Positions 3,531 through 7,700 of a stretch of 64,000 bases of DNA are shown piece by piece. Below the pieces are notes generated by a model that was not told the DNA's origin, did not search any database, and saw nothing but the letters and a program-made list of their open reading frames with translations. Source of the DNA: Eledone cirrhosa (lineage: Eukaryota); assembly GCA_964016885.1 (NCBI GenBank), contig OZ024742.1:268708001-268772000 (forward strand), given 5' to 3'. A program made the translations under genes and the position numbers. How positions within the stretch are numbered: position 1 is the first letter of the stretch; each line of letters starts with the position of its first letter.

Positions 3531-5094
3531 TTTCTTTTCGCTTGACTTTGTCCTGTACATTCGTTTACACATTAAATGACCGGCATCATTATTTTTTTCT
3601 TTTTCTCATGGCTTGACTATTTGAAATTATTCATAGCTCTAGGTTCTATCAATACTTACGGATGTAGCGCCATATTTGGTTATTTCAAATGGCGAACTAT
3701 GTTAATGGTTGCTTCAGTTTGCTACTGTGGATTTTCTCCCGATGACAGCTGACGCCAGTGAGCCATTAGCAAATCGTTTTCCTTAATGGTCGACACAAAC
3801 GCTAACATACTTATGTAAATTTTTATGAGTAAGATAATGCAAATATCTATACGTTCCTGTGTGTATGCATATCCCTGCATTTCATGTCTGTGCGTACAAT
3901 TTCTCTGTGAGTGTGAATGGATGTCTATGTATTTATGTATATGTGAATGCATATGAATGTTGAGGCACATTATCTTTCCATCTGTGTAGTCAATTCCTAA
4001 ACAGATTGATCAGCCGACACGTCCTTTCAATTATATATTTCTGTAGGAAGATAATTGGTAAGGGAGAATTATAGACGAAATGTATCAATATTATACACGG
4101 TTACCAGAAACACTACATCACTAACTTATATAACACAATAAGTTAAATAATGTATCCGTATCAATCGTAAGTAAAAATGTACAAATCTTGAATCGCTTAT
4201 TTCTATTTCTGTTCCTAATTCGAGTTTTTTTATGCGGCTTTTGTTTTGTGAATGCCATGCAGGGAAAAATACGTTTTGGAAAGATTTCTTTTCTTTCTCA
4301 ATGTTGAGTTGTGACAATTCAAACTACTTAATTTCCTCCAAATATTTTGAAAGTAGAATGTTATGCTGCTTAAATTAGAAAGAGGGAACATTCAGTGGAA
4401 ATACCTTATTCAGCTCAAATGCCAGGGTATTTGTTGCGCTACAGACCTTTGAGCCAACATTCCGGTTGGGTTATTTCACCTTTCACCGTCCCTTTCTCTC
4501 TCTCTTTCACACACACACACACACACACACTTATTCCCTCCCTCTGGTACTCTCTCACTCTCATTCCTGTCTACCTATATTTCGCTGTCAATCTCGCAAT
4601 CGTCTCTTTTCAAAGTAAGATATTTCTAAGGCATCAATACACAATATTCCCTTCCACGGGAATTGCATGTTACATTACTGCAATTTTGTTAGCAGAAACG
4701 TACTATAAAGATCTATCTGAGTTACAGGATATATTTACCGGAGTGTGAGATAGCAACTTGCATGTAGCGAGATTGTTATGTTGTGGGTATTGGACAATTA
4801 CCATATCGCAAGTTCCTTCTTAGATCATCCGCTAACCAAAAGAGCATAGCTTAATAGCAAAATTTAAAATATTGGTCGGTGTATCAAGAGATCTGGCATT
4901 CTGATTCGATTGAATGTTTATTTCAATCCGCACATTAACATTAATTGTGTGAAATGCACTTTTAAGAACTACTTGCTGGCTTTAAATATATGAACGCTAG
5001 ATCAAAGTTATTTCTCCCACAGTGTGTCAAAGATTGGTAGTATCGGGAGTGGGTGGGATACTATGCTTTGCAGCAAAAAAAATAAGGCCATTTA

Positions 5095-5220
5095 TGGTCT
5101 GAGTTCAAATCCTGCCGAGGTTAACTGTGCCTTTCATCCTTACGGGGTCGATAACATAAAGTACCAGTAATACGCTGGGATAATTGGTGGCCTTGTGCCA
5201 ACAATAGAAATAATTATAAT
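5095..5220 (+). mobile_element. tRNA-derived SINE fragment (B box, central domain and 3' tail; cephalopod-type)
   Basis: B box gagttcaaatcc, central gcctttcatccttacggggtcgataa..aagtaccag, tail ggccttgtgccaacaatagaaa; partial inverse copy at 35271-35326. Confidence 0.75.
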
Positions 5221-5832
5221 GAGAATGTACTATTAAAAAATGTAGATTAATCCAAATTGCTTCATTTCAGACATTATTAATATTTTGTTCACATTGGGTA
5301 ACAGTCAAATTTTAATATGCATTTGTATGCCCTCAGCAGAATTGAAATGCTTTAAAAGTATCCTGGTTCATTCCTGTCCTAGATGATTGTCTTCAAAACA
5401 TTTTAGCAACACGTTAATTAATTAAGCGCTCCCCTTTTCTGAATACAAATACAGCTGGTAAAGGTATTTTCGCCTGATGAGTGGTCAATGATTGTAACAA
5501 GTGACTAATTATTGTGTGCACCTCCATACTTTCTTTTTTTTTTTCATTTTGTTTTTCCATTAACGCCTCTTCTATTCTTTGTTGATCTGTCAATCCTGTT
5601 CACCATATCATCCCTTGAAAAACACATTAAATATACAGCCAATATATTGTTTAACTTATTCTTGTCTGATAACCCTCTAAACACACAGGCAAAACCAAAG
5701 TTGTTTAATAGGACAGTGACTTCTCTCCACAATTATTGTTTTCTATTGTTACTTTAAGCTGATCCACGTGACAGTGATTACCAAACACACACACATATAC
5801 GCACGTATAAGAACACCAGTCTCTATCTCTCC

Positions 5833-5894
<62 letters not shown>

Positions 5895-5900
5895 TATACA

Positions 5901-6594
5901 TGAAATTTTAGTAAGTAAGTTAATTTTATAATTTTCTTATTTTACGTCTCTCATGATATTGTTCTGCAACCCCATGCATTGAACCACAAGGTTACTAAGA
6001 CAAAACCTATGTATTTGCTAGCATTGGTATGCATCTGTGTGTATATATATGTTACTAGATATATTACTTCTTTATAATTATCTCCAAATTATTTGTCGAG
6101 CAATATTGGCCAAGACTGCTGCTATAGTAGCAGGCAGGCTGCTGTCTTCTTAACAAACCACTTTCCACTGATTGACCTCGATGTCACGCGATTGATTCTT
6201 TTTGAATTTGCCACTGACGCAGTAGGCAGTGATTTTCTCAATGGCTAGGAACTCAGTCCACGCTTTGCTATTTTCTATCCACTGAATTATTTTTGTATAA
6301 GTTCCCAGAGTCCACGCTTTGCCTGTAAACTTAGCTGAGAATAGACTTCCCTGACGACGAAAGGCTTCTCAATATTTTCTTCGGAAAGTATATTTATTCC
6401 CTTTCAGAAACTAATTAGTTGGGAGTGAAATTTTAGTAAGTAAGTTAATTTTATAATTTTCTTATTTTACGTCTGTCATATTATTGTTCTGCAACCCCAT
6501 GCATTGAACCACAAAGTTACTAAGACAAAACCTATGTATTTGCTAGCATTGGTATGCATCTGTGTGTATATATATGTTACTAGATATATTAATT

Positions 6595-6601
<7 letters not shown>
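5901..6601 (+). mobile_element. Non-coding HHR mini-retroelement: 1.3 copies of a 525-nt unit, between (CA)n and (TA)n
   Basis: Direct repeat 5901-6076 / 6426-6601 (offset 525), internal HHR, CTCC/GTCGAG motif at 6082-6100, no ORF. Confidence 0.85.
6346..6425 (+). ncRNA. Type-I hammerhead ribozyme
   Basis: Helix I cttcc/gggag; core CTGACGA; helix II gaaagg/cctttc; GAAA; palindromic helix III CTAATTAG; predicted cleavage after TT at 6420. Confidence 0.8.
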
Positions 6602-6685
<84 letters not shown>

Positions 6686-6729
6686 TATATATTTATATAT
6701 ATATAAATATATATATTTATATATATATA

Positions 6730-6801
<72 letters not shown>
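6597..6801. repeat. (TA)n microsatellite
   Basis: Direct reading. Confidence 0.95.
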
Positions 6802-6805
<4 letters not shown>

Positions 6806-6854
6806 TGCACACACAGACACAGCTAAACACACATACGTATATATTAAATGCAGT

Positions 6855-7635
6855 GAGTAAAATCGATATTGCAGCTGTGGCAGCGTCTCTCGAAAGAACA
6901 ATCCAAGCCAACCACTCTATAATATGGTATTGAAAAATCCATAAATTAAATCTTAGATTATTAAACATACGTTAAATGTATGAGAAACTGAAAACTGTGG
7001 TTAGTTACAGAATGCCACAACAACTGCTACAACACCGAAAATACCAACAGTTTAATACGAATCTCGACCTAATTGATAGATATAATCAATATATTCAATT
7101 GGTTTCTGTGAATTCGAAATCAACAATCCGAATTAAGCTATACGCAAGTTTGTACTGTATTAAGATCGAACGTTCTGTGTACCATCTGCTCGGTGCAATG
7201 TGACTGCTGTGATAGTATAGTACAAACTATCGTAGCGGGTCACGTGTTATTTCTCAAGGAATAGGGAAGAATTCCATCCGGTATTTTGGCGGGCAAATTT
7301 GAAGTGTGGACTAAGGCATCAATTCACAGTCTTTGAATTGAAGATCTCAACCAGGTTATCAAAGAAACAGAAATAATGAATCATTCAATAATCGATCAAT
7401 TAATTAATTATAAAGGTTAGGAGGAGAACAATAATAATGATATTGAGTAAAATCGAAGTTGGAGCTATGGCAACATATCTCGAAAGAACAATCCTCAGAA
7501 GCTTGCCCAAGTACTCGATAAGATGATATCGAGAAATCTAAATCTTAGAGTAATAAGCAGACGTTAAATATTTGAAAAATTGAAAACTGTGGTTAGGTAA
7601 AGAATGCCACAGCTACTACTACAATAACGAATTTA
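6855..7635 (-). mobile_element. Old non-coding partial-tandem element (~590-nt period)
   Basis: Diverged direct repeats ~6855-7035 and ~7445-7630; TCGAGTAC on - at ~7511-7518; (TA)n tracts nearby on both sides. Confidence 0.55.
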
Positions 7636-7641
7636 CAAAAA

Positions 7642-7700
<59 letters not shown>

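Follow-up and report, generated by a model that had tools for sequence, protein, structure and literature searches.

The locus described here comes closest to two groups of mobile elements that carry hammerhead ribozymes. For animal non-LTR retrozymes, RNA circles have been shown in mussel, coral and axolotl, and the copying of a circular template into cDNA longer than one unit belongs to the published retrozyme model, which is presented there as a hypothesis (PMC7229834). For Penelope-like elements, PMC8557442 describes the role of the hammerhead as unclear and PMC7761336 as a mystery; in the in vitro experiments described in PMC11167929 ribozyme mutants left insertion unchanged and unprocessed RNA was the main substrate.

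The present locus lies in a stretch of 64,000 nt from Eledone cirrhosa (contig OZ024742.1, positions 268,708,001–268,772,000, forward strand), hereafter the window. The reading favoured here, which we hold to be fairly probable, is that of a many-copy non-coding hammerhead repeat, likely inserted in a TA microsatellite through a Penelope-type enzyme whose template was likely circular RNA for the most part, with the start of this copy at 5901 attributable about equally to a cut template or to ordinary truncation.

The element and its hammerhead

A direct repeat of 181 nt (5901–6081 and 6426–6606) with a spacing of 525 nt and 96% identity defines the unit, the shared sequence starting at T5901, equivalent to T6426. 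The element ends at about 6597, is followed by (TA)n at 6598–6802 and measures 697 nt in total, that is 1.33 units. The features are as follows.

5838–5900, no strand: left flank within the target microsatellite, (CA)27 and then a short TA-like spacer
5901–6597, forward: single-arm insertion, non-coding, 1.33 units; its 5′ end, variable in the family, lies 5 nt past the predicted cut (+5), and its 3′ end is fixed, type B, at unit position 172
5901–6425, forward: full 525-nt unit, from the direct repeat and the genome copies
6345–6426, forward: type I hammerhead fold, from the minimum-energy fold, covariation and a descriptor match
6345–6350 with 6421–6426, forward: stem I
6351–6357, forward: core CUGACGA
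6358 with 6406, forward: C6358·A6406 mismatch at the base of stem II
6359–6364 with 6400–6405, forward: stem II
6407–6410, forward: GAAA
6410–6412 with 6417–6419, forward: stem III, 3 bp, palindromic AAUU loop
6420, forward: predicted cut after U6420, site GUU
6426–6597, forward: partial second unit, unit positions 1–172
6461–6478, forward: site A (unit position 53), the other fixed 3′ end of the family, unused by this copy and with one substitution in this pass
6576–6597, forward: site B (unit position 172), the fixed 3′ end used by this copy, adjoining (TA)n
6598–6802, no strand: right flank, (TA)n, target repeat

A reading made beforehand from the letters of the window (the sequence-only reading) had placed a hammerhead with its cut after 6420, had equated 5901 with 6426, 5 nt past the cut, and had given the insert a length of 1.3 units; these points were borne out by the fold, the direct repeat and the measured length, respectively. 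The minimum-energy fold of 6341–6433 was the type I hammerhead itself (−17.6 kcal/mol); the longer piece 6335–6435 gave a different fold (z −0.44). Rfam gave no match at gathering level in the whole 64-kb window, and none of its hammerhead families was found at E ≤ 10 in 5800–6700. A purpose-made hammerhead descriptor, run on both strands of the 64 kb, returned one match, 6345–6426. Across 16 hand-picked diverse copies, whose relatedness inflates the test, 94% of the stem cells were paired, with 13 double changes (0 of 500 shuffles), and compensatory changes were found at two pairs of stem II (AU/GC/CG and UA/GC). The CUGANGA-type core was present in 113 of 154 copies, and the string GAAAC–stem III–GUH in 136 of 154.

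NUU sites are cut poorly, and cleavage at a GUU site with a C·A mismatch closing stem II may be slow. Stem III with 3 bp and a palindromic loop is of a type reported as working in dimer form (PMC4209133). Since this copy holds only one hammerhead, it is unlikely to release a monomer by itself.

Within 5901–6597, no ATG-initiated ORF of at least 50 aa was found, save two that run into the TA repeat; the longest stop-free run in a trimer of the unit was 72 codons, and the unit is 63% AT. A TATA-like word (6295–6301), which differs among subfamilies, and reverse CCAAT-like words (about 6165–6200) were seen by eye upstream of the hammerhead and are a possible internal promoter. In-place tandem duplication was rejected because the 5′ and 3′ borders are the same as in dispersed copies, and an LTR element because the ends vary on one side only. 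Elsewhere in the window, a second partial-tandem repeat (6840–7645) directly follows (TA)n; its two copies, spaced by 590 nt, share about 80% identity, and it terminates in (TA)28. The hammerhead descriptor had no match in it on either strand. A short repeat at about 5090–5190 resembles an octopus SINE.

Family copies, paired 3′ ends and repeated reading of one template

Many copies of the 525-nt unit were found in the same genome (3.0 Gb searched), with two fixed 3′ ends that both adjoin (TA)n: end A (unit position 53; 1112 exact matches genome-wide) and end B (unit position 172; 629). For the statistics of ends, the first 100 A places listed, the first 100 B places listed and all 19 of a variant A pattern were taken regardless of length; the sample comes mostly from contig C1 and favours copies whose ends are intact. 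The best 30 loci by BLAST were left out, as the query selects copies with a full unit. After one arm of an ambiguous pair (L154 A) had been dropped, 248 of 249 arms were kept, from 197 insertions and with 246 mapped 5′ ends; two arms that ran off their locus were kept as at risk and not counted as ends. Insertions mostly span 0.2–1.6 units.

Genome-wide, 12,847 matches were counted for the 18-nt 3′ core of this hammerhead, from which older sister families (70–88% identity) appear to be several times more numerous; several of their copies were nested in the same TA runs (L010, L024, L029, L247, L267). Locus L070 (201–302) contains a further type I hammerhead, unrelated and of canonical appearance, whose stem III is palindromic and whose site is GUA; it probably belongs to another family.

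More than half of the arms (168 of 249) end at an inversion. Among the 118 inverted insertions, 105 paired an A arm with a B arm, 13 were ambiguous and neither A+A nor B+B occurred (0 each), so that A+B held in 105 of 105 assignable cases; in 130 of 155 arm records, duplicates included, the B arm reaches beyond site A. The copy at 5901–6597 is a lone B-type arm. The arrangement resembles L1 twin priming, in which priming on the RNA takes place from each of the two target ends and an inverted 5′ piece results; it differs in that the two sites of priming are fixed here and that the arms overlap as a rule.

A length of at least 525 nt was reached by 78 of 248 arms. In 60 arms (59 siblings and the 5901–6597 copy), the two passes of the same arm differed at 2.7% of sites, compared with 8.5% in random pairs; at 59 subfamily marker positions the passes differed at 51 of 1450 sites (3.5%), random pairs at 45%. 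Among 12,607 sites there were 13 cases (in 8 of 59 arms) of an allele private to one insertion that both passes carried, set beside 12 doubletons in 200,855 sites between same-subfamily insertions, a measure not identical to the both-pass count. Read-through junctions were without scar, 201 of 217 showing one of three subfamily spellings. In the 5901–6597 copy itself, the second pass differs from the first at 5 of 172 nt, and the four scored differences are rare alleles on one side. Subfamily ages overlap (1.4–2.7% from their own majority), and one duplicated two-arm insertion (L225/L226; C1:426.60 and 426.82 Mb) has arms from different subfamilies that differ at 21 of 34 marker sites, reflecting either a single event with two RNAs or a pair of neighbouring insertions; mixing of templates would therefore often show. 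The proposal of the sequence-only reading that more than one unit was copied from a template was thus supported, and its further option of template jumping lost ground for unrelated RNAs, where routine jumping was rejected because successive passes share a subfamily haplotype. A circular template best explains the shared haplotype, the private alleles and the scarless junctions, and the genomic pattern is compatible with circular RNA.

A co-resident autonomous Penelope-like element, encoding RT and GIY-YIG, offers a comparison. It has a 4.2-kb tandem unit and its own small hammerhead (L255, C6:60241000–60250999; also L287–L336), its 3′ word has 2,904 exact matches genome-wide, and the family carries the CxxxxCxxC linker described for Neptune and Nematis in PMC8557442. 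The 525-nt unit was not similar to its 3′ region (score 31 against 30 ± 3.8) or, apart from separate insertions, to 34 GIY-YIG loci (150 of 10,597 candidates scored); a GIY-YIG match between two copies (C1 near 30.68 Mb) was likewise a separate insertion and not part of the element. All 17 inverted pairs of the autonomous family joined a short and a long arm, with ends at about +127 and about +178 from its cut, the latter matching the retrozyme B end (+176) in distance from the cut. Its arm ends pile up at −80 to −60 from its own cut (28 of 61, about 0.9 expected), about 30 nt below a TATA-like word, a place that is likely the transcription start and hence a fixed RNA start; the same window held 20 of 246 retrozyme ends. 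As a true RNA 5′ end leaves a sharp pile-up in the autonomous family and the retrozyme has none of that size, most retrozyme templates would have no 5′ end inside the unit.

This absence of a pile-up bears on the alternative that linear read-through transcripts of tandem sources served as templates, the ribozyme being dispensable and tandem length being renewed by jumps within an RNA or by recombination. The stop rate climbed with length, from about 2 per 1000 nt below 300 nt to 5–10 at 600–900 nt, and only 3 arms passed a third site, which is not as a processive rolling circle predicts. Together with an excess of second-pass ends at −80 to −31 (17, 8.8 expected), the rising stop rate suggests that some templates were linear transcripts, to which a further excess at −71 to −64, mostly of second-pass ends, also points; arrays of 3–5 units exist, and L225/L226 joins two subfamilies. 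As a general account of the family, linear templates nevertheless appear quite unlikely given, besides the missing pile-up, the private alleles common to both passes, the conserved core and the covarying stems.

5′ ends and the predicted cut

The 5′ ends were scattered round the unit, and the first cut site was read through by 210 of 248 arms. Against counts expected from a stop rate smoothed over arm length, 2 of 246 ends lay at 0/+1 (1.3 expected), 9 at 0 to +5 (4.0 expected; ratio 2.3, 95% CI 1.0–4.3), 12 at 0 to +7 (5.3 expected) and 28 at 0 to +20 (14.5 expected; P about 0.001), the other 218 of 246 lying elsewhere. Divided by arm type and pass, the excess appeared in A1 (9 against 5.7), A2 (7 against 3.1), B1 (8 against 3.3) and B2 (3 against 1.6). 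The best 21-nt window of the whole unit started at −2 (family-wise p 0.04; 0 to +20, 0.08), a window width that was picked after seeing the data. No 8-nt window was significant family-wise. The 62 later-sampled arms contributed 6 ends at 0 to +20, too few by themselves. In the first sample, a small cluster of 5′ ends was seen at unit positions 276–281 (6 within 6 nt). The excess after the cut is real but small, about 13 extra stops in about 290 passages, and about half of the ends in the post-cut window belong to it.

Over the whole genome, junctions flanked by TA and no more than 30 nt from an anchor were more frequent after the cut (78 of 1563) than at a mid-unit anchor (15 of 617; odds ratio 2.1, p 0.007), a comparison that rests on one clean control whose anchor was 2 nt longer in one count (640 in place of 617 changes little). 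Reverse-strand counts were not used, as one locus was listed many times. From 23 TA-junction matches near the site, three were dropped since their alignment ran through a TA run, and the remaining 20 mapped to −7 to +20: 19 at +2 or later, including two at +5 like the 5901–6597 copy, one before the cut and none at 0/+1. A third control placed just before the cut gave 228 of 5947 (odds ratio 1.3 relative to the cut window, p 0.04), with an anchor that also matches sister families and about half of whose listed forward matches were internal TA runs by eye.

A start of this copy's RNA template at the ribozyme cut, with the enzyme running off the end of that template and 5 nt being lost on joining, has by our estimate a chance just short of even. 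It agrees with the position of the best 21-nt window, with an excess in every pass and both arm types, with the placing of the mapped TA junctions and with one insertion (L078) whose two arms end at 0 and +1. The autonomous family points the same way, 7 of its 61 arm ends lying at −12 to +12 of its own cut (about 1.2 expected; five insertions), with two full-length arms meeting at the cut at C1:21.876 Mb; 7 of the 61 arms ran off the reference. Running against it are the two ends at exactly 0/+1 and the background share of about half among the ends at 0 to +5, and the junction pattern detects less before the cut, at its edge.

The same excess would arise if the folded, uncut ribozyme (with the 3′ strand of its stem I) or a bound protein made the enzyme stall. 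The excess is spread over 0 to +20, and 4 ends share position +11, close to the boundary of a longer stem I seen by eye. Both points are in keeping with stalling, as are a similar excess inside the core (−71 to −64; 13 against 4.3 expected, mostly second pass, the best of the 8-nt windows) and the preference for unprocessed RNA in the in vitro account cited above. We regard stalling as unlikely, although it deserves some weight: the 12 ends at 0 to +7 lie inside stem I and reach up to the cut, none is extra just before it (−20 to −1; 12 against 12.8 expected), and AT content had no predictive value for the stop rate (rho −0.03).

For the copy at 5901–6597, the choice between cleavage and ordinary truncation is thus a roughly even bet, and because sister ends fall all round the unit and reach only about twice the expected number after the cut, its start is weak evidence of cutting. 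The sequence-only reading had taken the 5′ end to coincide with the cleavage site, to have been made by cleavage and to attest ribozyme activity in vivo, and had proposed comparing 5′ ends over genomic copies. The end is close by, at +5, and not at the cut itself; that cleavage made it was not upheld beyond an even chance. The comparison of copies yielded an approximately 2-fold excess at 0 to +20 among mostly scattered ends, a weak sign of activity at the level of the family, while a single copy proves little. Better, if indirect, signs of a working ribozyme are the covariation and the seamless same-haplotype read-through.

Under the favoured reading of a mostly circular template, copies with two ribozymes would be transcribed, cut and ligated into 525-nt circles, the cutting probably taking place in dimers because stem III is weak and palindromic. 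An RT/GIY-YIG protein would then cut (TA)n, one DNA end being primed at each of the two sites, A and B, and the cDNA would run round the circle and halt at nearly random places. About 5% of passages over the site would meet cut RNA and stop within 20 nt of the cut, and the offset of +5 may be explained by joining to the first T able to extend the TA repeat.

More tentatively, and with a likelihood somewhat below even, the genomic ends of both elements may record the Penelope cycle in vivo. In every event, one complex of protein and RNA would prime the two DNA ends at two different fixed RNA sites. The retrozyme template would be mostly circular, a single RNA being copied into both arms through strand displacement, and the hammerhead would set the 5′ end of a measurable minority, full-length autonomous copies included. 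If this is true, the Penelope hammerhead gains a visible, testable role. The family gives countable footprints, namely, for a circle, stops that are uniform together with a haplotype common to the passes, and further a strict rule of one site per end and a small excess at the cut, for which the autonomous element is an internal control; no paper counting these footprints was found among the open-access papers searched.

Comparison with retrozymes and Penelope-like elements

As judged from its sequence, the element fits a new member of the animal non-LTR retrozymes, having one hammerhead per unit, more than one unit head-to-tail, no coding capacity, no LTR and a GC content below 50%. With the retrozymes as described in PMC7229834, PMC7761336 and bioRxiv 10.64898/2026.07.22.740005 it shares an AT-rich non-coding unit with one type I hammerhead per unit, and it also shares a weak palindromic helix III, tandems of more than one unit and the presence of Penelope-like elements in the same genome. 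The unit is longer, 525 nt compared with about 170–400 nt for published retrozyme RNAs (150–450 bp repeats; PMC7229834, where size is descriptive and no criterion). The published retrozymes are described as long arrays, whereas the element here forms inverted two-arm insertions in (TA)n; unlike them as described, it has a GUU site and a C·A pair closing stem II.

Features of non-autonomous Penelope-like elements were found as well: truncation, a partial tandem, an inverted 5′ copy and two 3′ ends that define a one-end tail. Penelope-like elements with a C-terminal GIY-YIG, as described in PMC8557442 and PMC3846280, show 5′ truncation, partial tandems, inversion of a 5′ copy, a one-end tail and insertion into microsatellites; two internal RT start sites are described in PMC11167929, and the additional base that separates core position 9 from stem II recurs in the Penelope-like hammerheads of PMC4209133. 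In contrast to autonomous Penelope-like elements (RT and GIY-YIG), the element has no ORF, and its tail of 119 nt compares with the 30–40 bp described for Penelope-like elements. The rule of one site per end is strict here (105/105), whereas the start site in vitro was the same for both strands according to PMC11167929, and the small excess of genomic ends at the cut differs from that account, which describes no reads ending there. A dispensable ribozyme and the lack of cut-end reads, as described in PMC11167929, fit a template that is mostly uncut or circular.
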